A stretch of 64,000 nt of DNA from an uncultured cyanobacterium (GCA_963703315.1 OY969811.1:2144001-2208000); one strand, 5' to 3'. Counted from the first letter of the stretch, positions 42,606 to 54,608 are shown. The notes: a model not told the origin generated them from the sequence alone. Program-made: numbers and translations.

Positions 42606-42702
42606 AAAAACTAAAAATGGCGTTGCCATTTTTAGTTTTGAAAACCCTTACTGGATTTGGTTTTTAATTCACAAAAGTGTGCCACCACTTTTGTGAATTG
42701 GT
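42606..42702. repeat. Dispersed ~100-bp double-hairpin repeat (empty copy)
   Basis: AAAACTAAAAATGGC-GTT-GCCATTTTTAGTTTT..AACCCTTACTGG..AATTCACAAAAGTG..CACTTTTGTGAATT. Confidence 0.7.
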
Positions 42703-42706
42703 ACAG

Positions 42707-44200
42707 TTATGGATTTTCCTGCAAAATTGCTTCAGGGCGATCGCTTGTTAATTCATTTTTCAATCCATTTATCTCAACAGATGATGACTCCGCTAAAACT
42801 GCTGTTTGAGGAGGATTAAACTTGCCATTTTTCTCGTCAGGTAGCCATTTTAGAAATGGTAATGGTAATAGACTGCTGAGGTTCGCAATGACGATCAAAA
42901 TCCAGAGATTATCAAAATTAGATTCAGTCACACCGAGAAAATGGGTGAGTACAGCCCCTAATTGGAATGAACATAGGGCGGAGATATTAATCACTGACAT
43001 CAAAAGTGCAAATAAAGTTGCTTCGATACCTTCAGGACAGAGCCTTGCTGCCAAAACTAAAATAGGCATAAACGCAATTCTGCCAGCAACGGTCAAAATC
43101 AAGCTATCGCCAAGACTAAACCAGCGATCGTCAATGCCTAACGTTCTATTAGCATGAGTGACTAACAATAAACTAGTTAGTCCCAAAACAGTGGAAATAA
43201 TCGTTGTCCAAAAGAAAATTGTGCGGGTTGGCACACCTTTAAAAAAGCGTTGGAATAGCCACACTCCCAGAAGTCCTGCCCAACTCGCAAAAAATTTAAT
43301 TGTTCCTAAAAATTCTGGATTAAATTTCAGTTCATTGGTAGTGAAATAGAAAAAAGCGGTATCCGAACTGGGTGTTGCTTGCCAAATAAACAAGAAAAGT
43401 GTCGGTAGCCAAATTGCTTTATTGGTAAAGGCTTGACGCAACTGCCCAAAGTTGAACTTCAGCGACATCCATAGTTGCGAATTTCTCGATAAAGGTTTAG
43501 AAGTTACCGACTCTTGATTAGTTGTGGCATTAGTTGCTGCTGTGTCAGGAGCCACAATATGTACGTTAGACATTGGTGGATCAGCGATCGCAAAGGCAGC
43601 AATCCCCACTAGTAATGGTAGAAAGGCTGTAATCTCAAATACGAACTTCGCGCCAAAATGCTCCAATAAATAGCCACTCAAATATGCCGAGATAATTGCG
43701 CCAATTGATGAGGCAATCCAGCTAAAGGACTGCAAAGATCCTGCATCTCCCTCTGGTTCTAGTCTTGCGCGTTGGACAATTAGGGCATCCGTAATCGCAT
43801 CAGAAAAAGCTAGAGATAGTCCACCCAACGCAATCATCGCGATCGCCCAAAAGGGAGTAGTAACCCATATTCCCAAGCTCAACCAAGCAAAAATCCCTAA
43901 AACACTGGACAGCAACAGGTAAGGGCGACGACGATAGCCAAATATCGGCAATCCATCCGAAATCAGACCATAAAGGGGTTTAATCGTCCAAGGTAGCATG
44001 GTAATACCGACCATTGAAGCCACTTCCGCAGGACTTAATCCCAAATCATCTTTGAGGAAAAAACTCACGGCAAGCTGCGAGATCGCCATTGCCCCTTGTA
44101 CGAAATAAATAGTAGCGATCGCTGCCAACTCAAGGTCAAACGAGCGCCCCCGTAAACTTTTGAGCCAGTCTGATTGGATTAGCACTATAGGATTGCCCAA
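42707..44200 (-). CDS. Folate/biopterin (BT1) family MFS transporter
   Basis: LPWTIKPLYGLISD..FGYRRRPY, WQATPS and CPEGIEATLFALLM motifs. Confidence 0.93.
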   Translation of the reverse strand: MGNPIVLIQSDWLKSLRGRSFDLELAAIATIYFVQGAMAISQLAVSFFLKDDLGLSPAEVASMVGITMLPWTIKPLYGLISDGLPIFGYRRRPYLLLSSVLGIFAWLSLGIWVTTPFWAIAMIALGGLSLAFSDAITDALIVQRARLEPEGDAGSLQSFSWIASSIGAIISAYLSGYLLEHFGAKFVFEITAFLPLLVGIAAFAIADPPMSNVHIVAPDTAATNATTNQESVTSKPLSRNSQLWMSLKFNFGQLRQAFTNKAIWLPTLFLFIWQATPSSDTAFFYFTTNELKFNPEFLGTIKFFASWAGLLGVWLFQRFFKGVPTRTIFFWTTIISTVLGLTSLLLVTHANRTLGIDDRWFSLGDSLILTVAGRIAFMPILVLAARLCPEGIEATLFALLMSVINISALCSFQLGAVLTHFLGVTESNFDNLWILIVIANLSSLLPLPFLKWLPDEKNGKFNPPQTAVLAESSSVEINGLKNELTSDRPEAILQENP

Positions 44201-44298
44201 ATATTAAGAAATTTTAATCTCAGTATATTTTAGCCTTTATCGAAAAAATCATCAGAGCCACAATAAAGTTTTTAGGGCTTACACAAGAGTTAGTATCT

Positions 44299-44329
44299 AA
44301 TCGCCTATTCCATCAAATCAAACAGCGAT
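44299..44329 (+). repeat. Paired-HIP1 repeat block A
   Basis: AATCGCCTATTCCATCAAATCAAACAGCGAT. Confidence 0.65.
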
Positions 44330-44381
44330 AATTAAACACTATTTCTGATTATAATCAATATAAAAATTGTGGGCAAAATGT

Positions 44382-44969
44382 ATGATTGCTACTATTGCAT
44401 CGCCTAGCCTATCACCTACAGAATATCTAGAGTGGGAAGTAACACAAGAAGATAGATATGAGTATGAATATGGAGAGGTTATCGAGGTAATAGGGGGGAA
44501 GCTTGAAAACAATGAAATTGCTCTTAATTTAATTGTACTGATCCGAAGTCATTTACGTGATAAAGGTTGTCGTATCCTTGGTGGTGATGCGAAACTCATG
44601 ACCATTCCGAGCAATGTTTATTACTTTCCTGATGTGGTTGTTAGTTGCGATTCTCGCGATCGCTATGCTAGAGAGTTTTTACAATATCCTTGTTTAATTG
44701 CGGAAGTCTTGTCCCCTGCTACAGAAAGTCGCGATCGCGGGATTAAGTTACGCAACTATCTCAAGATCGCTTCATTACAAGAATATATGCTCATCAATTC
44801 AGATTCTCCAAGTATTGAGTTCTATCGTCGTAGCGATCGTACAGAGGTTTGGGAATATCTAACAATCAATAGTTCAGATTTAACCGTTAACGATCCTGAA
44901 GTTCAACTAACTAGCATAGATTTTAATCTTCCGCTATCACTCATCTATGAAAATGTTGATTTTGAGTAG
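44382..44969 (+). CDS. Uma2 family endonuclease
   Basis: YEYEYGEV, FPDVVVSCD and AEVLSPATESRDRGIK motifs. Confidence 0.92.
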   Translation: MIATIASPSLSPTEYLEWEVTQEDRYEYEYGEVIEVIGGKLENNEIALNLIVLIRSHLRDKGCRILGGDAKLMTIPSNVYYFPDVVVSCDSRDRYAREFLQYPCLIAEVLSPATESRDRGIKLRNYLKIASLQEYMLINSDSPSIEFYRRSDRTEVWEYLTINSSDLTVNDPEVQLTSIDFNLPLSLIYENVDFE

Positions 44970-44972
44970 TCC

Positions 44973-45010
44973 TAATCGCCTATTTATCCACATCAAACAG
45001 CGATCACCCT
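44973..45010 (+). repeat. Paired-HIP1 repeat block B
   Basis: TAATCGCCTATTTATCCACATCAAACAGCGATCACCCT. Confidence 0.75.
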
Positions 45011-45053
45011 AGAGTTAGATATACTGAAGTTAATTTACTATTTACTCCTGCCT

Positions 45054-45398
45054 ATGAAATTACCAAATGGCGATCGCCCAGAAATTTCTATGCAAAAGAT
45101 CTTAGGGTATTGCTTAAACATCAATCATGATAAGGGTAAAGACAAGGCGAGAGTATTTCAATCTAGGCTGGGTATTACATTCAAAATACCGATCGCTTGG
45201 TTGAATTAATTCAAGTTGCGGCAGTTGAAGGTGAAGTTGTACAGGAAAGTAATACGAAATTTGGTAAGGAATATAAAGTGGATTGGGAAATCCCTAATAC
45301 TGGAGGTGTTGAGCTTCGGACTATTTGGGAAGTTAGTATAGAGTCTGGTTATCCACGATTGATTATTGATTAGTGCTTTTTTGAAGAGAGAGAAATAA
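45054..45398 (+). pseudogene. Frameshifted DUF6883-like gene, partner of DUF4926
   Basis: MKLPNGDR..GYCLN.NH.KGKDKARVF; frameshift near 45179; duplicated ATTGATT near 45358-45371; the natural stop overlaps the next ATG. Confidence 0.75.
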
Positions 45399-45658
45399 TG
45401 AAAACTCCACAGTTACTTGATACGATCGCTATTCTAAAACCAATTTCCGTAGATAGACTTTCGCTAATGGAATCAGAGTATGATTTTAATTCGGCTTTGC
45501 CAGTGGGATTGGTTGGTACGATTGTGGATATTCATCAGGATAATCAAGGGGTTGATTATTTGGTGGAGTTTGCGGATTCTGATGGGTGTGAGTTTGCGAT
45601 CGCCTATTTGAAGGCTAATGAATTTCTTACTTTGCAGTATGAGCTTGCTGCGGCTTAG
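45398..45658 (+). CDS. DUF4926 domain protein
   Basis: LLDTIAIL, GLVGTIV and YLVEFADSDG motifs. Confidence 0.85.
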   Translation: MKTPQLLDTIAILKPISVDRLSLMESEYDFNSALPVGLVGTIVDIHQDNQGVDYLVEFADSDGCEFAIAYLKANEFLTLQYELAAA

Positions 45659-45663
45659 AGTTG

Positions 45664-45770
45664 TCGCACCTCAACACCACAGACCCGATCGCCTATTTCC
45701 CACATCAAACAGCGATCTCCCCCTCACACCCCAAAAAACAGATCGCCTTTCCCTCACACCAAACAGCGAT
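45664..45770 (+). repeat. Paired-HIP1 repeat block C
   Basis: CCCGATCGCCTATTTCCCACATCAAACAGCGATC... units; about 75 bp nearly identical to block D. Confidence 0.85.
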
Positions 45771-45772
45771 TT

Positions 45773-46030
45773 CTAGTAGTGAAAGCGGCAGGCGAGAATT
45801 CTGATTTTATCGTCTAGAACTTCATAAACTAGACGATGTTCTTGATCGATACGGCGTGACCAGCAGCCAGATAGATCGTGTTTTAGAGCTTCGGGTTGTC
45901 CTGTTCCTTCAAATGGATTACGTTGGACTTCACGAATTAGTTTGATAATTTTTAAAGCTTTTTTACGATCGCTTTCAATCCACCAAGCTAAGTCTTCAAA
46001 AGCATCTGGATCAAATTCCAAGTTTTTCAC
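45773..46030 (-). CDS. yoeB: Txe/YoeB family toxin
   Basis: AFEDLAWW, PFEGTGQPEALKHDLSGCWSRRIDQEHRLVY and CRFHY; probable GTG start at 46030. Confidence 0.93.
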   Translation of the reverse strand: MKNLEFDPDAFEDLAWWIESDRKKALKIIKLIREVQRNPFEGTGQPEALKHDLSGCWSRRIDQEHRLVYEVLDDKIRILACRFHY

Positions 46031-46226
46031 AGGCTGCTTCCAAAGAGATTCCATCTTGACGTTTTCTAGCTTTAAGCAGTCTGTTTTTCATGGCTGGACT
46101 ACTAAGCAAATAGGCGGTTTCTCTTTCTGCCATTAGTTCTTGCCAAAAGGCAACGGGGACAACTACAGAAATTGTTTGCCCTTCTGAATCACAGATGTAT
46201 TGTAATGCGTTAGTCATAGCAGCCAA
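46011..46226 (-). CDS. YefM-like antitoxin
   Basis: ETAYLLSSPAMKNRLL; overlaps yoeB. Confidence 0.85.
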   Translation of the reverse strand: MAAMTNALQYICDSEGQTISVVVPVAFWQELMAERETAYLLSSPAMKNRLLKARKRQDGISLEAACEKLGI

Positions 46227-46257
46227 TATAACTTACTAGATTAACCATAATTATAAC

Positions 46258-46375
46258 TGATCGCCCCTTAACCACCCATCAACGCGATCGCCTATTTCTC
46301 CACATCAAACAGCGATCGCCCCCTCACACCCCAAAAAACAGATCGCCTTTCCCTCACACCAAACAGCGATCGCCC
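46258..46375 (+). repeat. Paired-HIP1 repeat block D
   Basis: Same units and orientation as block C. Confidence 0.85.
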
Positions 46376-46385
46376 ATATTGGTGA

Positions 46386-46601
46386 TTAACTAGAAACTGC
46401 TGCTAATTGAGCAAATAATGGCTTGTCTTTGGGAAGTGTGCTGACTTGAAAGATAGAAAAGCCAATTACTTGACCATTAGTGTTTACTCGCTCCATTAGG
46501 TCGTCGTTTTCAGTTTCTCGCATATAGCCCAATTCATCTGAGAAGCGAACTTCTAGAAAGTCAGCTTCTGGATCGAACCAAATCTTTACAAATTGCGCCA
46601 T
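46386..46601 (-). CDS. DUF2283 domain protein
   Basis: KIWFDPEADFLEVRF..GQVIGFSI. Confidence 0.85.
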   Translation of the reverse strand: MAQFVKIWFDPEADFLEVRFSDELGYMRETENDDLMERVNTNGQVIGFSIFQVSTLPKDKPLFAQLAAVSS

Positions 46602-46897
46602 AGTTCTAATCCTTGTTTTAGTTTGTCTGTAAAATAAGCTGTAATTATAAAGGCATCGTCAGAGTTATCTTTTATTACAACACATAACCATTTTGCCCCA
46701 ACTATTGTTTGTTCGTAAAAACGATAGTACAAGTACACTTGACTATCTGATCTTGATTGTCTTACAACTTCAGGGGTTTGCAGCACTATTTCTAGTTGAA
46801 ATCTCATATCTACCATTTCTGGATGATCAAGAATGTGTTGTAAGCGTTCTTCTGTTAGCCTAATTTGGCGATTTTGGTAGTCGGTAAGTATTTCCAT
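46586..46897 (-). CDS. Putative RelE/BECR-fold nuclease toxin paired with DUF2283
   Basis: IRLTEERLQHILDHPEM, YLYYR and FIITAY motifs. Confidence 0.75.
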   Translation of the reverse strand: MEILTDYQNRQIRLTEERLQHILDHPEMVDMRFQLEIVLQTPEVVRQSRSDSQVYLYYRFYEQTIVGAKWLCVVIKDNSDDAFIITAYFTDKLKQGLELWRNL

Positions 46898-46977
46898 TAT
46901 CTAAGTTAAAAATTAGGCTGCTTCGGTAAATTTAGCGTCTTTAGCGATCGCAAAATCATCAAATTTCACAAAAATAT

Positions 46978-47098
46978 AGCGATCGCCCTTCACCCCCACA
47001 AACCCGATCGCCTATTTCTCCATATCAAACAGCGATCGCCCCTCATCACCCACAAAACCCGATCGCATAAATCTCCACACCAAAAAGCGATCGCCCCA
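46978..47098 (+). repeat. Paired-HIP1 repeat block E
   Basis: Alternating GCGATCGCCCCTCATCACCCACAAA / CCCGATCGCCTATTTCTCCA units. Confidence 0.85.
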
Positions 47099-47194
47099 AA
47101 AAACTAAAAGTGGTTGTAAAATTTGGATATCTGACAACGATTGTGAATTGCCGATTAAAATGCTTATGGTTTATAGTGTGTATGGTGTGTTGAG

Positions 47195-47473
47195 ATGAGT
47201 ACCACTTTCGAGTGGGATGAGCAAAAAGAGGCTGATAATAAGGCAAAGCATGGCTTAGATTTTGAAACTGCTCAATATGCTTTTTTCGATCCAGACCGTT
47301 TGATTGTCCATGATTCGGAACATAGTGAAGTGGAGGAACGTTGGTTTTGTATCGGTAAAGTAGATGATCTTGTATTGACAGTGCGTTTTACTTATCGAGA
47401 TGGAGTGATTCGGATATTTGGGGCTGCTCAATGGCGTAAATGGAGGAAATTTTATGAACAACACAATTCCTGA
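47195..47473 (+). CDS. BrnT family toxin
   Basis: FEWDEQK..NKAKHGLDF..EERWFCIG..IRIFGA. Confidence 0.92.
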   Translation: MSTTFEWDEQKEADNKAKHGLDFETAQYAFFDPDRLIVHDSEHSEVEERWFCIGKVDDLVLTVRFTYRDGVIRIFGAAQWRKWRKFYEQHNS

Positions 47474-47687
47474 TCCTGCTGAACCAATTGGAAATGTCAC
47501 TATTGTTAAAGATTTTTTGCCACCAGTGAATCAGTTAATTCCGAGGCAAAAGACGGTAACGATTACGATGGAATTCACTCAAGAAAGTATTGAGTTCTTT
47601 AAGCGTGAGGCTAAACGCCGTAATTCTTCATATCAAGAAATGATTTCCAATCTTGTGGATGCTTATGCAAAACAGAGTAAGGTATGA
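47454..47687 (+). CDS. BrnA/CopG-like antitoxin
   Basis: DFLPP..TVTITM..SIEFFK..SYQEMI; overlaps brnT. Confidence 0.85.
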   Translation: MNNTIPDPAEPIGNVTIVKDFLPPVNQLIPRQKTVTITMEFTQESIEFFKREAKRRNSSYQEMISNLVDAYAKQSKV

Positions 47688-47698
47688 ATAATTGATTC

Positions 47699-47868
47699 TG
47701 ATCGCCCCCACAACACCCAACACCCGATCGCCCATTCCCTCAAATCAAACAGCGATCACCCCACACCACCCACAAACCCGATCGCCTATTCTCCCAAATC
47801 AAACAGCGATCGCACCCTCATCACCCACAAACCCCGATCGCCCATTTCCACATCAAACAGGGATCGCA
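47699..47868 (+). repeat. Paired-HIP1 repeat block F
   Basis: About three ~50-bp units. Confidence 0.85.
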
Positions 47869-47932
47869 TTGCTAATTTATATTGACGATTACGTTAGAAT
47901 TAATGCAAAACAAGTAGTAGAGCCGTAATGTT

Positions 47933-48142
47933 ATGCAAATAAAAGAACTCACTACCGAACAGTTTCGTTTACTAGTTCGTGAAGTTGTAATTGAAGTGCT
48001 AGAAGAATATATCGATCTAGATGAAGGTAAGAAGTTAAAAGCATCGGTTGTGGAACGCTTATTACGACAACAACATCAACCAACTATTATTCCTGCGGCT
48101 CAAGCTATGCAATCATTGGGGCTTAATTGGGATGAGTTATAG
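47933..48142 (+). CDS. Putative antitoxin
   Basis: MQIKELTTEQF..DLDEG; overlaps a downstream RelE. Confidence 0.75.
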   Translation: MQIKELTTEQFRLLVREVVIEVLEEYIDLDEGKKLKASVVERLLRQQHQPTIIPAAQAMQSLGLNWDEL

Positions 48143-48392
48143 TATTGACTTTACTTCTGAGGCGATCGCTGATCTTGCAAAAATCGACCGCACTAATCAA
48201 ATACGGATAGCTCGTAAAATCAAGTGGTTGGGCGAAAATTTTGAACAAATTACGCCTCTATCACTTTCTGGCAATTTATCAAGCTTTTTTAAGCTGCGTG
48301 TTGGAGATTATCGAGTTCTTTACGAGATCGCGCAATCACAAAAAAGTCTCACTATTCATCAGATCGGACATCGCAGAGAAATTTATGATTAG
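48132..48392 (+). CDS. RelE/ParE family toxin
   Basis: YSIDFT..A..DL, KLRVGDYRVLY and IGHRREIY motifs. Confidence 0.92.
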   Translation: MSYSIDFTSEAIADLAKIDRTNQIRIARKIKWLGENFEQITPLSLSGNLSSFFKLRVGDYRVLYEIAQSQKSLTIHQIGHRREIYD

Positions 48393-48397
48393 ATGAA

Positions 48398-48514
48398 TGA
48401 TCGCCTATTTCCTCAACATCAAACAGCGATCGCCCCTCACTACCCACAAACCCGATCGCCTATCTCCACATAAAACAGCGATCGCCCATTTCCTCAACCA
48501 AAACAGCGATCGCC
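48398..48514 (+). repeat. Paired-HIP1 repeat block G
   Basis: Same units, between two convergent RelE modules. Confidence 0.85.
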
Positions 48515-48517
48515 ATA

Positions 48518-48853
48518 TCAGTATTCGTCATCTTCTAAATCGATTTCTAGATCTGAAATCAAATCTTGTGTAACAGCATAGACATCTCGCTTATCACCTT
48601 CCTTACGCCTTCCTACACCCACGATAACTACCACTACTCGATCTTGTTCGATTCGATAAATAATCCGATAACGCTGTCCGACAGACCGAATACTACGATA
48701 ACCCAATAGTTCTTCAGATAAAGCCTTACCTTGTTTTTCTGGTTCATCCTTGAGCTTCTCAATCCTTTTCAAGATCACGCTTTGTTCGCGCCGATCCTTG
48801 ATTGCAGTAAACAGTTTCTGCGCTTGAACAGAAAAAATAATTCTATATTCCAT
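48518..48853 (-). CDS. RelE/ParE family toxin
   Basis: YRIIFS, GKAL..L.GYRSIR..RYRIIY and VGRRK..DVY motifs. Confidence 0.9.
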   Translation of the reverse strand: MEYRIIFSVQAQKLFTAIKDRREQSVILKRIEKLKDEPEKQGKALSEELLGYRSIRSVGQRYRIIYRIEQDRVVVVIVGVGRRKEGDKRDVYAVTQDLISDLEIDLEDDEY

Positions 48854-48860
48854 AGCAGTA

Positions 48861-49121
48861 TTAGAAACCCAACTCTAATTTCAAGGCTTCTAAACTAATT
48901 GTTTGTCCTAAATCTGCTTGTCGAATACCTTCTCTCAAATCTGCCATAAACTCGCGATCACTTAAAATCTCCATTGTTTCAACCAAGGAAGCAAACTGTT
49001 GCATACTCAAAGCAACAATTACAGGTTTACCGTCTTGCGTGATAATCGCTGGATCTTTGAGGTTCTTAGATAGCGCTGGTAATTGTTGCTGAGCTTCAGC
49101 AACAGTCAAATAATTAAGCAT
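48861..49121 (-). CDS. Phd/YefM family antitoxin
   Basis: TVAEAQQQL, IITQDGKPV and ETMEILSD motifs. Confidence 0.9.
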   Translation of the reverse strand: MLNYLTVAEAQQQLPALSKNLKDPAIITQDGKPVIVALSMQQFASLVETMEILSDREFMADLREGIRQADLGQTISLEALKLELGF

Positions 49122-49191
49122 AATGTTTTTTGAGTGACTATTGTTATTTTAGTCAATTTCAAGTTATTTAAGATTGTACGATATCCAGTCA

Positions 49192-49425
49192 AGCGATCGC
49201 CCCTCATCACCCAAACCCCGATCGCCTAAATCTCAACATCAAACTGCGATCGCCCCTCATCACCCAAAACGCCCGATCGCCTATTCCCCAACAAACAGCG
49301 ATCGCTCCTCAACACCCAAAACCCGATCGCCTATTCTCTGCAAATCAACCAGCGATCGCACCCTCATCACCCATAAAACCCGATCGCCTATTCCCCACAT
49401 CAAACAGCGATCGCCCCTCACCAAA
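49192..49425 (+). repeat. Paired-HIP1 repeat block H
   Basis: Four to five ~50-bp units. Confidence 0.85.
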
Positions 49426-49479
49426 CCTAAAAATTATTTGATAAAATCAGGTGTTAGTGTCAAAGAGGAAATATTTGCT

Positions 49480-49857
49480 ATGAAAAGGGATATGAATCTA
49501 ATTCGTAAACTTCTTTTGCAGTTGGAAGAAGCGCCAGCAGAAGTATATGTATCAAATTTAGAAGTGGCTGGATATTCGGATGAAGAAATTGCTTACAATG
49601 CTTACCTGATGATTGATGGCGGATTGGCAGAAGGCAGACAGTCTAAACAAACTAATCAAATGGGAGATAGTTGCCCTGTAGCTGTGACCTTGACTAATTT
49701 AACTTGGGAAGGGCATGAGTTTTTTGACTCAATTAGAAATGATTCTATCTGGAAGAATACACTAGGCTATATCAAGGAAAAAGGTGGGAATGTTCCATTT
49801 AACTTAATACCGCCAATCGCAGCGCTTTTTGTCAAGCAACATTTTGGGTTGTCATAA
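49480..49857 (+). CDS. DUF2513 domain protein
   Basis: MKRDMNLIRKLLL..LTWEGHEFFDSIR..IW; the ORF-track extension upstream is translated repeat DNA. Confidence 0.88.
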   Translation: MKRDMNLIRKLLLQLEEAPAEVYVSNLEVAGYSDEEIAYNAYLMIDGGLAEGRQSKQTNQMGDSCPVAVTLTNLTWEGHEFFDSIRNDSIWKNTLGYIKEKGGNVPFNLIPPIAALFVKQHFGLS

Positions 49858-49924
49858 GCTTAGAACAGGGAGTTATTGTTTGTAATTGTTGTTAGTGAGT
49901 TATCTGATTTAAAGGGGGTATCAA

Positions 49925-52900
49925 GTGGGGAAATCTAACTGGCGATCGTTTGAAGAGGCTCGTGCTTTTGTACATCAACTTCAACTAAAAAATGTAGCAG
50001 AGTGGAAGGCTTGGGCGAAAACTGAAGCAAAACCATCAGATATCCCTTGTAATCCCTATGGAGTCTATAAAGACAACGGCTGGATTAGTTATGGTGACTG
50101 GCTTGGCACTGGTGTAGTTGCATCTCAAAATTATACGTATTTATCATTTGCAGAAGCTCGTGATCTTGTCCATAAATTGCAGTTAAGAAATCAACAAGAA
50201 TGGAGAGATTGGGTCAAGACTGATGCTAAACCTGAATGTATGCCTGCCAATCCTTATGGTACTTATAAAGACAAAGGATGGCAAGGTTGGGGGGATTGGC
50301 TCGGCACTGGTAGACTTGCAAATCGGAATCGCACTTATCTTCCTTTTACAGAAGCTCGTATTTTTGCTCATCAACTTAGGTTAAATACTACTGAAGAATG
50401 GAAATTGTGGACAAAGACTGATGCTAAACCTGATAATGTACCTGCTGATCCTGCACGTGTATACAAAAGCAAGGGGTGGCAAGGTTGGGGGGATTGGCTC
50501 GGCACTGGTAGGCTTGCTAACCAGAATCGCATTTATCTTCCTTTTGTGGAGGCTCGTGCATTTGCTCATCAACTTAAGTTAAAGACTGCTGAGGAATGGA
50601 AAGTCTGGGCAAAAACTGACACTAAGCCTAATAACATACCTGCTAACCCTGCACTTGTATACAAAGACAATGGATGGATAGGTTGGGGGGATTGGCTTAA
50701 TACTGGAAGAATTGCCAACCAAAATCGCATTCTTCTCCCTTTCCAAGAAGCTCGTGCATATGTTCACAAATTAAACTTAAAAAGTAGGGAAGAATGGAAA
50801 TCTTGGGCAAGGAGTAAAGATAGACCTAGCAATATTCCTGCTGATCCATATAAAGCCTATGAAAAGGAAGGATGGTTAGGGTGGGGGGATTGGTCTGGCA
50901 TTATAAGCCGATGGAAGCCCAATGCTATCTTGAGTTTTCTATATAGTCTCAAGCCTATTTTATTTGGTTTGGAATCTGCTGAACTTTACGCCATCATGAG
51001 GCAAAACGGTATGATTGCTTCTATTGGCAATAAAAGAAATAATCCCGAAATCTTCAAAAGCATTAAAGATTTATGCTCTACCAAAGATCTCGAATCTGAA
51101 TGCAATAAATTAATTTCTCAGATTGAAGATTTAAGAAATAACGGAAGTGGTGAATCTGATGATGCGGAGTTTGAAGATTTTTTCAAAGATGACGACTTAA
51201 ATAGTAGCGAAGAAATAGATACTAATTTAGTCCCTGCTGAAATTGAAAATACTGATACTGAACTACCTCAACTAAAATCCTTTGACTCATTAAAAGCAGT
51301 TGACTTACTTGTAGAAGCAGGAATCACCTCAGATCATGAAACTATCGAATTTTTAATCTGCAATCGCGTTAGCGCCCTATGGCAAGCCTGCCTAAACAAC
51401 GACCCTACCTTTGACCTAGACCGACTTCGCAACGAAACAGGCGGCACATACTTTCAGACGATCCGCGATCGCTTCCTCAGTCAACACGATGGCGCAGCAA
51501 ACCTCACCATACCCAACGGCTATAACTTCCCATATCCACCCAACCTGATGCAACGCCTCACCGCCTATCGCATCCTCACAGAAAGAAGGATCGGTAACTG
51601 GTCAGGAGTTGGCGCAGGGAAAACCATATCCGCCATCTTTGCCAGTCGCGTCATTAACGCCAAATTCACAATCATCATCGCCTTTAACAGCACCATCGAA
51701 GGATGGGCAAAAGCGATCGCCCAAGTCTATCCCGACAGCATCATTTACCAAAAAGAACGCGGTGAAATCAGCGTAGATCGCAACCACCATAACTATCTCA
51801 TTCTCAACTTCGAGAAATTCCAACAACCCTACTCCGCCGAACTTGTCGGCAACATCCTCACCAATCACCAGATCGATTTTGTCGTCATCGATGAAATCCA
51901 AAACGTCAAACAACGCGATCCCAATCCCAACAAAGAAAGCAAACGCCGCAAAACCCTTAACTCCCTACTCTCCGAAGCATCCCGCCAAAACCCTGAACTC
52001 TGCGTCTTAGGCATGAGCGCCACACCCGTCATCAACAACCTCTACGAAGCCAAAGCACTGCTCGAAATGACAAGGGGCGAAAAATTTGACGAATTGAAAA
52101 CCTTCAGCACGATCGCCAATGCCCTCGCCATGCATGAAAAACTGATGCTTCATGGCATCCGCTATCGTCCCAATTACAAGATTGCGATCGCCGAAAGCTT
52201 TCCCGAAATCTCAGGCGAACATCTGCGACCTCAACTCATCGCCGCCATCAAAACTAGCCCCCTCGCTGTCGAGCAAATCCTCCTCTCAGCCAAAATCGAC
52301 ACCATCATCGCCCATCTCAAAACAGGAACCCTCATATATACCCACTATCGCGAAGGCATGGTCGAACCACTCCACAAAGCGATCGCCGCCGCAGGTTACA
52401 AGGTGGGCTTATTCACAGGCGTAGAAGACACCAAGGAACGGGATTCCGCCAAACAGGAATTTATCGCCAGAAAAATCGACATTCTCATCGGCACGGCTCC
52501 CATTGGTACAGGCGTTGATGGACTGCAATATGTTTGCGATCGCCTGATTATCGCCAGCCTTCCTTGGACTCATGCCGAATACGAGCAACTAGTCGGGCGC
52601 ATCTATCGCCAAAAATCATCATTTGCCAAAGTAGAAGTAATTATTCCCCAAGTCATCCTCGATCATCAGGGCGATATCTGGTCATGGGATCGTCAATACC
52701 GATGGAGTCGCATTCAATGGAAAAAATCCCTCGCTGACACGGCGATCGATGGCGTAATTCCTAAAGGCGAACTCGCCTCGGAAAAAGTCGTCCTCCAAAA
52801 AGCAGGAGAAGCGCTGCAAACATGGATCGATCGCGTCGAAAGTGGCGATATCTATGAAATCAACCGTGAAGAATTGCGCGTCCCCTTACCCGAAGCGATC

Positions 52901-53494
52901 GCTAAAATCCTGCAACGCCGCTTTGGTGACTTCTCGGCGATGAACAACCGCTTCAATAATTCCTACAGCCATACCACAGGCGATCGCCTCAAAGCAAACC
53001 CCGAAGAATGGTATCAATACCACCACCTCTATCGCGCCGCCCGTGAATCATGGAAAGAAATCCCCTACGAAAAAATTGCCGAAAAGCTCCAAAACTACAC
53101 CAATCTCCAGATCGGGGACTTCGGTTGCGGAGAAGCCAAACTAGCCGAATTACTTCCCAATCATCAAGTCCATTCCTTCGACCACATCGCCATCAACGCA
53201 AAAGTACAAGCCTGTGATATCGCCCATACACCTCTCCCAGATGCCACCCTCGATGTCGCCATCTTTTCCCTATCCCTCATGGGCTTAAACTATGCCGAAT
53301 ATCTCCAAGAAGCCCATCGCACCCTCAAAGGTGGCGGCAGTCTCCTCATCGCCGAAACCATCAGCCGATGGACAGACAAAAAGCAAGAACTTCTAGATTT
53401 ACTAACGAGTTTAGGATTCACTGTTGTTAAAGTGCAAACAGGCGATCGCTTCCTTTACATCAATGCCACTAAGCCACTGATCACCTTACTTTGA
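49925..53494 (+). CDS. Fusion: five ~66-aa Trp-rich integrase-type repeats + SF2 helicase + Rrp8-like SAM methyltransferase
   Basis: Repeats F.EAR.F.H.L.L....W..W....KP..IP.NP..VYK..GW.GWGDWLGTG; GVGAGKT, DEIQ, SATP, GVDGLQ, QLVGRIYR; DFGCGEAKL, CDIAHTPL, AIFSLSLMG. Confidence 0.85.
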   Translation: MGKSNWRSFEEARAFVHQLQLKNVAEWKAWAKTEAKPSDIPCNPYGVYKDNGWISYGDWLGTGVVASQNYTYLSFAEARDLVHKLQLRNQQEWRDWVKTDAKPECMPANPYGTYKDKGWQGWGDWLGTGRLANRNRTYLPFTEARIFAHQLRLNTTEEWKLWTKTDAKPDNVPADPARVYKSKGWQGWGDWLGTGRLANQNRIYLPFVEARAFAHQLKLKTAEEWKVWAKTDTKPNNIPANPALVYKDNGWIGWGDWLNTGRIANQNRILLPFQEARAYVHKLNLKSREEWKSWARSKDRPSNIPADPYKAYEKEGWLGWGDWSGIISRWKPNAILSFLYSLKPILFGLESAELYAIMRQNGMIASIGNKRNNPEIFKSIKDLCSTKDLESECNKLISQIEDLRNNGSGESDDAEFEDFFKDDDLNSSEEIDTNLVPAEIENTDTELPQLKSFDSLKAVDLLVEAGITSDHETIEFLICNRVSALWQACLNNDPTFDLDRLRNETGGTYFQTIRDRFLSQHDGAANLTIPNGYNFPYPPNLMQRLTAYRILTERRIGNWSGVGAGKTISAIFASRVINAKFTIIIAFNSTIEGWAKAIAQVYPDSIIYQKERGEISVDRNHHNYLILNFEKFQQPYSAELVGNILTNHQIDFVVIDEIQNVKQRDPNPNKESKRRKTLNSLLSEASRQNPELCVLGMSATPVINNLYEAKALLEMTRGEKFDELKTFSTIANALAMHEKLMLHGIRYRPNYKIAIAESFPEISGEHLRPQLIAAIKTSPLAVEQILLSAKIDTIIAHLKTGTLIYTHYREGMVEPLHKAIAAAGYKVGLFTGVEDTKERDSAKQEFIARKIDILIGTAPIGTGVDGLQYVCDRLIIASLPWTHAEYEQLVGRIYRQKSSFAKVEVIIPQVILDHQGDIWSWDRQYRWSRIQWKKSLADTAIDGVIPKGELASEKVVLQKAGEALQTWIDRVESGDIYEINREELRVPLPEAIAKILQRRFGDFSAMNNRFNNSYSHTTGDRLKANPEEWYQYHHLYRAARESWKEIPYEKIAEKLQNYTNLQIGDFGCGEAKLAELLPNHQVHSFDHIAINAKVQACDIAHTPLPDATLDVAIFSLSLMGLNYAEYLQEAHRTLKGGGSLLIAETISRWTDKKQELLDLLTSLGFTVVKVQTGDRFLYINATKPLITLL

Positions 53495-53535: not shown

Positions 53536-53796
53536 ATGTCAACCAATAGCCCAACTGTATTTGCAGAAGAATTAGCCAATGAGCTAGACAAAATCCCTGA
53601 GCAGTATTGGTCAAACCTTTTGCAGATTATTCGTTTATTTCGTGAAAGCGTTACGCCAGAATCAGAAAACCATTCTCAAGATCCTGCAATTGTCGAGGCG
53701 ATCGAAGATTTAGGGCTTGTCCATGCCATGCTAGAAGTCAAAGACGAAAAGCCTCTTAGTCTCCAAGAAGCACTTGCCGAAATGGAAAGAGCATGA
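53536..53796 (+). CDS. Putative antitoxin
   Basis: EAIEDLGLVHAM..LSLQEAL; ATGA overlap with RelE. Confidence 0.75.
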   Translation: MSTNSPTVFAEELANELDKIPEQYWSNLLQIIRLFRESVTPESENHSQDPAIVEAIEDLGLVHAMLEVKDEKPLSLQEALAEMERA

Positions 53797-54062
53797 ATGT
53801 TAATTATCTTCCCAGCTTTCTTAAAGAACTTAAAGATCTCAGAAGTACACCTTACTTCAAACCCATAAACACACTTGTATTTGAGGAGATTCCTAAACTT
53901 GCTGGGTTGGCAGATATCAAAAATGTCAAAAAGCTACAGGGGTATGAAAATGCGTATCGAATCAAAGTAGGAGATTATCGAATTGGAGTGATCTTTGAAG
54001 ACGAAACCGTTACATTTTGTAGAGTATTGCATCGCAAAGAAATTTATCGCTATTTCCCATAA
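53793..54062 (+). CDS. RelE/ParE family toxin
   Basis: SFLKELKDL, KKLQG..YRIKVGDYRIG and HRKEIYRYFP motifs. Confidence 0.92.
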   Translation: MNVNYLPSFLKELKDLRSTPYFKPINTLVFEEIPKLAGLADIKNVKKLQGYENAYRIKVGDYRIGVIFEDETVTFCRVLHRKEIYRYFP

Positions 54063-54140: not shown

Positions 54141-54608
54141 TTAGAGAACTAAGCTTGCCATTTTTAGTAGAAGTTCTGCATCCAATAAAAAGACTGTTTG
54201 TAGATCTGCAAATTTTTTGATCGATACCTGCATGATATGACTGGCAATACCCAAGGTGTCGCGATCGCGGTATTCGGCTGGTATTGGCTGGAGACTCTGT
54301 ACAGGTACATCTTCTACATTAGGTAAATTGGCGATCGTAATTCCGTATAAACTATTTTTCCCTGCGAAAATAACTAGGAAACCTTTGGCTAGATTTGTCT
54401 CTTGACCATAAATTTTTTTATATAGGTCAATGACTAAAACTTCGCGATCTTCATAGGTGGTTATTCCCAATAACTTATCGCCACTACGATGAATTTGCGG
54501 TAAAGGAATAATCCGTACGACACTATCGATTCCCATTGCCAAATTTAGATCTCCCATTGAGAAGATTAAAAATTTGAGAGTTTCTTGTTTTTTCTTATTG
54601 CTGAGCAT
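54141..54608 (-). CDS. cheW: CheW-like protein
   Basis: KFLIFSMGD..GI..Y..EVLVIDL; follows cheA. Confidence 0.8.
   Translation of the reverse strand: MLSNKKKQETLKFLIFSMGDLNLAMGIDSVVRIIPLPQIHRSGDKLLGITTYEDREVLVIDLYKKIYGQETNLAKGFLVIFAGKNSLYGITIANLPNVEDVPVQSLQPIPAEYRDRDTLGIASHIMQVSIKKFADLQTVFLLDAELLLKMASLVL

Follow-up and report, generated by a model that had tools for sequence, protein, structure and literature searches.

Blocks of a tandem repeat with HIP1-type cores bracket toxin-antitoxin and defense gene modules in Pseudanabaena

Layout of the array and structure of its repeat

The window analyzed here is a stretch of 64,000 nucleotides from the genome of an uncultured cyanobacterium (GCA_963703315.1, OY969811.1:2144001-2208000). 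Between genes for a BT1 transporter and CheW, it contains an array in which small modules of toxin-antitoxin (TA) and other genes are separated by blocks of a repeat built on highly iterated palindrome 1 (HIP1). The nearest named relatives of one of these modules are found in Pseudanabaena. The comparisons presented below indicate that the repeat marks a genus-wide cassette system, whose modules come from a common pool in random order with one polarity, pass between species, and end at the repeat cores, with largely separate pools for each repeat variant.

When we re-derived the coordinates of the array, eight blocks were recovered at the positions given by the initial annotation, all on the + strand, while the module genes lie on both strands. 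Block edges, whether starts or ends, are often 3-13 nt from stop codons. The proposed alternation of eight modules with the blocks is strict for the seven bracketed modules; the eighth, a DUF2513 gene, has no block after it and belongs to an unbracketed tail. Pfam recovered Uma2, a split DUF6883, DUF4926, YoeB, DUF2283, BrnT, two ParE/RelE, Phd/YefM, and DUF2513, but gave no match at E<=0.001 for the partner genes that had been named YefM, nuclease, BrnA, and antitoxin. The features are as follows, with monomer types a and b described further below.

42707-44200, - strand: BT1 transporter, core gene, left flank
44299-44330, + strand: block A, single monomer of type a, left end of the array
44382-44969, + strand: module 1, Uma2 putative endonuclease (Pfam PF05685, 1e-30)
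44974-45007, + strand: block B, single monomer of type a, 5 nt past the Uma2 stop codon
45054-45658, + strand: module 2, frameshifted DUF6883 (45054-45373) and DUF4926 (45398-45658) (Pfam)
45663-45770, + strand: block C, its last 71 nt (45700-45770) repeated in block D
45773-46217, - strand: module 3, YoeB toxin (45773-46054; Pfam) and upstream gene in the antitoxin position (46011-46217)
46258-46373, + strand: block D (b-a-b-a)
46386-46897, - strand: module 4, DUF2283 (46386-46601; Pfam) and DUF4258-like gene (46586-46897)
46979-47094, + strand: block E
47195-47687, + strand: module 5, BrnT (47195-47473; Pfam) and gene in the antitoxin position (47454-47687)
47699-47867, + strand: block F, six monomers
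47933-48392, + strand: module 6, gene in the antitoxin position (47933-48142) and RelE/ParE toxin (48132-48392; Pfam)
48398-48513, + strand: block G
48518-49121, - strand: module 7, RelE/ParE toxin (48518-48853) and Phd/YefM antitoxin (48861-49121) (Pfam)
49193-49425, + strand: block H, nine monomers, the last and longest block
49480-49857, + strand: DUF2513 (Pfam), tail gene, no block after it
49925-53494, + strand: 1,189-aa SNF2-type helicase and methyltransferase with N-terminal tandem repeats, tail gene
53536-54062, + strand: RelB-like/RelE pair, tail
54141-54608, - strand: cheW, right flank

Most of these modules recur in related genomes. Counting the present genome, module 2 has 9 copies in 9 genomes; module 3 has 10 in 10, module 4 has 4 in 4 (identity 97%), module 5 has 4 in 4, module 6 has 7 in 7, and module 7 has 6 in 6, and the Uma2 family of module 1 also occurs between blocks of two congener arrays (L057 and L175). 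Two partner genes have leads from the ESM Atlas only, namely the antitoxin-position gene of module 3 (Phd-like, 0.92) and the partner in module 4 (DUF4258-like, 0.96). Members of the tail helicase-methyltransferase family lie after the last array block in several congeners, and this is a candidate defense gene; the window copy has about five N-terminal repeats of ~66 aa and a weak, sub-cut-off likeness to DISARM DrmD.

Contigs of one public sequencing run, from a possible source sample, have 0-1 differences to the window in the eight pieces listed. These contigs span blocks A, B, F, and G, so at those points the array does not result from misassembly. To the left of the array, between a glyoxalase gene and BT1, a dispersed multicopy element resembling a miniature inverted-repeat transposable element (42607-42703) is marked in 4/4 runs by very high contig depth and numerous loose ends.

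The blocks had been described as built from a ~50-bp unit with HIP1-like cores. The cores are of the HIP1 type, but the unit proves to be a dimer of two alternating monomers. Monomer a has a period of ~27.6 nt and ends in ATCAAACA, followed by a perfect GCGATCGC in 358/543 cases; monomer b has a period of ~26.4 nt and is followed by CCGATCGC in 335/482. The two types alternate in 699 of the 714 monomer steps. Each monomer consists of a HIP1-type core and a nearly G-free spacer (~1% G on the block strand), and conservation peaks around the a|b and b|a junctions and decays toward the monomer middles. Blocks range from 1 to >20 monomers with a median length of 119 nt, and the extremes include ~1.5 kb of tandem monomers in a single block of one congener (L063:14668-16188) and a single block with 24 monomers (L197). 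Blocks A and B consist of one monomer each; their first core is degenerate, and neither contains a perfect HIP1. Spacers are ~78% alike, and monomers are no more similar within a block than between genomes (0.77-0.78), with no sign of concerted evolution of monomers within one genome.

HIP1 itself is abundant in this genome, with 8,189 sites in 4.57 Mb at a mean spacing of 557 nt, which is about the length of a module. Because the genome is so rich in HIP1, we used decoy genomes in which every CGATCG was left in place. A profile of the repeat built from the window gave 77 matches of at least 16 bits in the genome and 1 in each of two decoys. A generic monomer scan by itself was unspecific (204 real versus 136-144 decoy matches), so only clustered or profile-scored monomers were counted.

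The closeness of block edges to stop codons could suggest that the blocks are mainly regulatory spacers, such as terminators or insulators between TA operons, with recombination as a side effect. There is a precedent in the promoter early stem-loop (PeSL) elements of T4-type phages, which, according to the sections available to us, join regulation and shuffling (PMC2839356). Against this, the genes face both ways while the blocks keep one strand. Nor do the monomers fold better than shuffled spacers on either strand (bottom strand: a, -5.23 versus -5.25; b, -4.31 versus -4.46 kcal/mol), and the repeat has no Rfam match at E<=1. We therefore regard a primarily regulatory role as very improbable.

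Distribution of the repeat and the shared module pool

The genome contains 29 multi-monomer blocks at 13 places, 28 of them intergenic. At each place the blocks lie on one strand, spaced ~500-700 nt apart and alternating with small gene pairs, and the spacer variants differ between places. A tight small-gene pair lies beside 23 of the 28 intergenic blocks, compared with 302 of the 3,017 remaining intergenic regions (odds ratio 41, p about 1e-18). The blocks are thus enriched at module borders, in line with the initial proposal, and ordinary intergenic DNA does not carry them in an even spread. Elsewhere in this genome (~974-976 kb; L082:2139-4186), a 50-nt direct repeat surrounds a GmrSD-like gene; it looks like a further variant because its other strand reads as two HIP1-type cores around a G-free spacer, and a similar monomer occurs at position 2738365.

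The repeat is largely confined to the genus. One exact pattern finds it in 47/48 genus genomes (reversed control, 0 matches), and in a class-wide draw the repeat was found in 33/33 congeners, 3/13 other family members, and 9/354 other genomes, the last with a single match each. Dolichospermum copies of the window module that points to Pseudanabaena, at 80% identity, lack blocks, and a search of viral contigs with one exact pattern gave no match. Blocks occur in one Pseudanabaena plasmid record (NZ_AP017566.1; L234:5511-13149), whose three-block array with HigBA and MazF modules adjoins the gene for monomeric isocitrate dehydrogenase (idh). In a cyanobacterial metagenome-assembled genome (L107:361-1032), module 6 (84% protein identity) lies between blocks of another variant with its orientation unchanged.

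We compared 51 repeat-bearing regions from 16 congeners, with genes clustered by BLAST into module families. Repeat types were assigned by hand, and genes outside the window were called with our own hexamer-scored open reading frame caller, which may miss or mis-start genes. In arrays with the window variant, 28 modules recur and make up a common pool; relative to the repeat, all 164 instances of these modules have the same orientation and 0 the opposite one. Shared DNA segments, considered without family labels, are likewise co-oriented in 784/784 pairs; 770 of these pairs share a repeat type and 14 do not, against a baseline of 54% of all segment pairs within a type. These pair counts are not independent because some loci are possibly one genome reached by two routes.

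Module order within arrays is indistinguishable from shuffled rather than fixed: 112 of 118 adjacencies are distinct, and the 6 repeated ones compare with 8.9 +/- 2.6 in shuffles. At a locus common to two species (L039 and L041), arrays of 6 and 10 bracketed modules have one module in common. The modules have also moved between species. Six window modules are 91-97% identical to congener copies, whereas BT1 of those congeners is 74-84% identical, and the fourfold-site divergence from this genome is 0.23 for arrays, 0.53 for control genes, and 0.51 for left-flank genes.

These data bear on the possibility that the repeat is a self-propagating, HIP1-targeted minisatellite that hitchhikes with mobile TA genes and mutates rapidly by slippage, while modules move by other means. 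The monomers are hypervariable, with the equal within-block and between-genome likeness noted above, and slippage or conversion would maintain G-poor spacers. A comparable element is SDR5 (small dispersed repeat 5), which passages citing it describe as a ~21-nt unit inserted between the halves of HIP1, dispersed and found in Nostocaceae only. The minisatellite explanation fails, however, on the uniform orientations, the type-specific pools, the single module per interval, and the boundaries at cores described below, and the blocks are not dispersed. It is strongly disfavored, and we consider it improbable.

Array cargo includes BrnT, RelE/ParE, YoeB, MazF, HicAB, PIN, HEPN-nucleotidyltransferase, DUF433/DUF5615, and DUF6883/DUF4926 pairs, and RloAB, Shedu, GmrSD, NACHT, and restriction genes lie in or after arrays. 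Directly after last blocks we observed Shedu SduA (L084:3222-4409), RloAB (L038:3830-5864), GmrSD with HEPN (L028:14478-16345), and NACHT (L035:2811-4832); many neighbors of these genes have no assigned family and are candidates for defense genes.

Core boundaries, anchor genes, and proposed routes of exchange

Homology between module copies stops at the core of the bounding block and not outside the blocks. Together with module order and block placement, this bears out the initial proposal that modules are gained, lost, and shuffled at the blocks. On this evidence each cassette would comprise the DNA from the last core of one block to the first core of the next. The monomer type that follows a module is module-specific (140/159 versus 109 in shuffles), an a monomer precedes 133/157 modules, and the first monomer shows a small but significant excess of identity in permutations (0.795 versus 0.773; 0.781 versus 0.765). 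Since a and b alternate and the following type is module-specific, more than an 8-bp core is matched. From the boundary and monomer-type data, cassettes carry no fixed site along with them but stay in register. Within the window, the 71 nt shared by block C and block D (46300-46370) differ by one mismatch, flank the YoeB module, and end exactly at a core; general target-site duplication is unsupported, as only 2/193 adjacent block pairs show duplication of at least 65 nt.

The locus between BT1 and cheW had been suggested for strain comparison. This comparison was run but carries no information: arrays are absent from all 20 congener BT1 loci (some are cut off), and BT1-cheW failed as an empty-site comparison with the upstream neighbor of BT1 varying among species. 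More is learned from other orthologous loci, including chlH. Right-hand flanks of arrays are recurrent, comprising chlH, rnc, acnB, idh, gltB, rbcL, and the helicase-methyltransferase gene.

For chlH we used 20 of 45 genomes, picked by the position of chlH and room on the contig. The 3' side of chlH carries multi-monomer blocks at 14/20 loci, a single monomer at 1, none at 3, and a contig end at 2; array contents differ at all loci, and the 5' side is often syntenic. In 20/20 comparisons with this genome, divergence is lower in the array-facing (3') third of chlH than in its 5' third; for other long genes, the count is 30/77. Among 20 genus sequences the 3'/5' divergence ratio is 0.73 with a steady gradient. 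The corresponding range for four other genera is 0.94-1.09, and 0/20 of their loci have blocks. The gradient in the genus would be expected from use of chlH as a long homology arm.

Several observations concern other array ends. The tail RelB-like/RelE pair of the window has near-copies in the tail of the chlH array of its own genome and in chlH arrays of several congeners, so the window array is probably a relocated piece of a chlH-type island. The chlH array of this genome starts within a truncated PIN-like gene (likeness by eye) with a degenerate core (L024:4419-4599), a deletion joint. Monomeric idh is present in only 33/41 genus genomes searched and lies inside or beside arrays (L028:11936-14167), with arrays on both sides of it in this genome; being patchy and array-linked, this core metabolic gene may itself move with arrays.

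Our preferred reading, which we consider probable without being secure, is that the host's homologous recombination exchanges the cassettes, with transformation as the probable preceding step and with blocks and anchor genes as arms. The blocks of alternating monomers would act as polar homology linkers. DNA of other Pseudanabaena would enter by natural transformation. Recombination would then join a block to any block of its own variant that is in register, or use the anchor gene paired with its orthologue as a second, long arm, or both. Single cassettes could then be gained or lost, or whole right-hand segments swapped (last block, large defense gene, tail, and anchor 3' end). Many methylated HIP1 cores may raise uptake or crossover at these places. 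TA pairs may dominate by resisting the deletion that direct repeats would otherwise cause, with retention through addiction as established TA biology would predict, and may also act in phage defense. The chlH gradient, the presence of comEC and dprA in the genome, and the lack of a linked recombinase support this mechanism. It also has precedents, as far as the available parts of these sources go: transformation of PCC 7002 rose 7-fold with one homologous HIP1 in arms of 250 bp and 83-fold when it was methylated (Kamoku and Nielsen, bioRxiv 10.1101/2024.09.10.611283); HIP1 has been proposed as an uptake signal (Rodriguez-Cruz et al., PMC13756078); and at hotspots without integrases, the core genes alongside show recombination (Oliveira et al. 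2017, PMC5635113).

Several observations weigh against exchange by homologous recombination. The blocks are short and their spacers divergent, which makes them poor RecA substrates. Among 53 module pairs at least 97% identical, the 20 unique nt by the core are 96% identical and the first monomer 81%, against a background of 76-77%. Ordinary homologous crossovers would suggest a more gradual boundary than this drop at the core, which is compatible with an event directed at the core or with very rapid turnover of monomers. Duplication of a block around a module is rare, as given above. Left-hand flanks differ in almost every array, and the model leaves left ends unexplained; several are truncated module remnants, and left junctions showed no correspondence with HIP1 sites at orthologous places of this genome. 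The signal at acnB is weak (16/20, with multi-monomer blocks at only 4/20 loci), and the window array itself has no recognized core anchor. Many genes of the cargo families lie apart from blocks, as 17/22 ParE and 4/9 BrnT genes are >800 nt from any block (5/22 and 5/9 are within 800 nt). Finally, no excised circle or rearranged joint was seen in the run matching the window, where only contigs, which drop rare variants, were available. Joints in runs X2-X4 connect one block to another, have short sides derived from other organisms, and were excluded.

A core-directed enzyme stays in consideration because the boundary is sharp, the blocks are short and divergent, and the left ends do not fit the model. 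Such an enzyme would act in trans, cutting or recombining at HIP1 cores with the monomer ends (a|b, b|a) and moving cassettes as circles; candidates are a conserved ~510-aa double-domain tyrosine recombinase or a methylation-directed nicking or repair activity. The conservation peaks at the two junction types and the predominance of a monomers before modules agree with this idea. Recombinases of ~510 aa occur in many genus genomes, and PMC4390886, in the part available, cites work on HIP1 as a place of site-specific recombination in PCC 7002 and on SDR5 inserting precisely into HIP1. However, no recombinase adjoins any array. The only true tyrosine recombinase of this genome, a 507-aa XerC-like protein with two integrase-family domains (1.754 Mb; L075:6115-7638), is far from every array, and proteins of similar size occur in family members without the repeat. 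Block length is variable, no fixed site moves along with a module, and the chlH gradient requires homologous recombination anyway. An electrophoretic mobility shift assay cited in the accessible portion of PMC13756078 gave no HIP1-binding complex. We therefore consider a dedicated trans-acting enzyme unlikely.

Searches for other enzymes and sites gave a similar picture. Among 157 proteins in or beside arrays there were no recombinase families, save the unlinked 507-aa protein that was added deliberately, and a phage-integrase match beside the array at 4.3677 Mb is a TetR regulator. The genome has no serine resolvase. Its single Y1 transposase match (349 kb) lies far from arrays, and none of its seven IS110 copies adjoins one; these copies score equally (347858, 2426747, 2715419, 2716594, 3075588, 3076766, and 3869206) and include two back-to-back pairs. 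No GC skew of the genome is clear. Integron attC sites carry paired RYYYAAC and GTTRRRY boxes. No complementary pair of these lies 35-135 nt apart on either strand of 44200-50000, and GTT is absent from the top strand of every block. A bottom-strand hairpin that is temptingly attC-like by eye was ruled out by the folding controls and the lack of covariation; the common AA variant of its left arm has no compensating change. In the complete genome, the best match to the integron integrase model TIGR02249 reaches 32 bits against a cut-off of 265, which is not decisive for clusters of attC sites lacking integron integrases (CALINs). The initial annotation had likewise seen neither integrase nor attC in the window.

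A further idea, more tentative than the preferred recombination reading and in our view somewhat doubtful, gives HIP1 itself the role of crossover point, with methylated cores and variant-specific G-free spacers acting as address codes that direct insertion, excision, and cross-species exchange. A cassette would be born when a gene pair between two of the 8,189 HIP1 sites is captured, and several orthogonal address codes would maintain parallel pools. If true, this would provide a concrete function for HIP1 and a route to cassette genesis.

Relation to known systems and implications

The closest parallels are chromosomal integrons and CALINs, such as the TA cassettes of the Vibrio superintegron described in the portion of PMC8618304 available. 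Both have one- or two-gene cassettes, co-oriented repeats, and shuffled, TA- and defense-rich content from a shared pool. The Pseudanabaena arrays differ in lacking IntI, attC core boxes, and a selected hairpin; their joints are variable-length tandem repeats that do not travel with the cassette, their genes face both ways, and several repeat variants have their own pools. As presented in the accessible sections of Arbiol et al. 2010 (PMC2839356), PeSLs are repeated intergenic elements of ~100 bp at the borders of variable genes, where recombination inserts, deletes, and swaps the genes between them with no dedicated integrase. In contrast to these phage elements, which combine a promoter with a stem-loop and for which mini-circles have been shown, the Pseudanabaena repeats are HIP1-cored tandem monomers with TA cargo on a bacterial chromosome, and contigs of the run matching the window showed no circles.

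Hotspots of horizontal gene transfer that turn over by recombination in adjacent core genes (PMC5635113, in the part consulted) also lack an integrase, have a less diverged adjacent core gene, and are linked to natural transformation. In Pseudanabaena the recurring core gene lies on the right side only, left flanks almost never recur, and internal blocks add arms, so that single modules are exchanged and reordered. SDR5, reported as dispersed, differs from the tandem, alternating repeat that brackets gene modules here. The pdif modules of Acinetobacter, as far as the sources available describe them, are similarly accessory modules, including TA pairs, shuffled between short sites. By comparison, the joints of Pseudanabaena are tandem direct monomers on HIP1 without Xer arms. 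The pdif sites are single XerC/XerD sites of ~28 bp. Two other classes were rejected. Repetitive extragenic palindromes (REPs) or bacterial interspersed mosaic elements mobilized by REP-associated tyrosine transposases or IS200/IS605 do not fit, with no linked Y1 transposase and no selected fold, and a CRISPR array does not fit head-to-tail monomers separated by whole genes.

In the literature searched, which covered few subscription journals, we found no earlier description of these arrays; Elhai et al. 2008, Akiyama 1998, and Robinson 1997, cited in the parts of PMC4390886 and PMC5861425 available, might mention them. There is a fair chance that the Pseudanabaena arrays represent a new class built on HIP1.

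The repeat provides a marker for the genus and possibly a tool for short-arm integration. The array tails, with Shedu, RloAB, GmrSD, NACHT, restriction-modification, and many genes without a family, offer a list of candidate anti-phage genes. The arrays amount to an integron-like stockpile of TA and defense genes that operates with no integron, in a genus widespread in fresh water, and tie the long-unexplained HIP1 palindrome to a visible evolutionary role.

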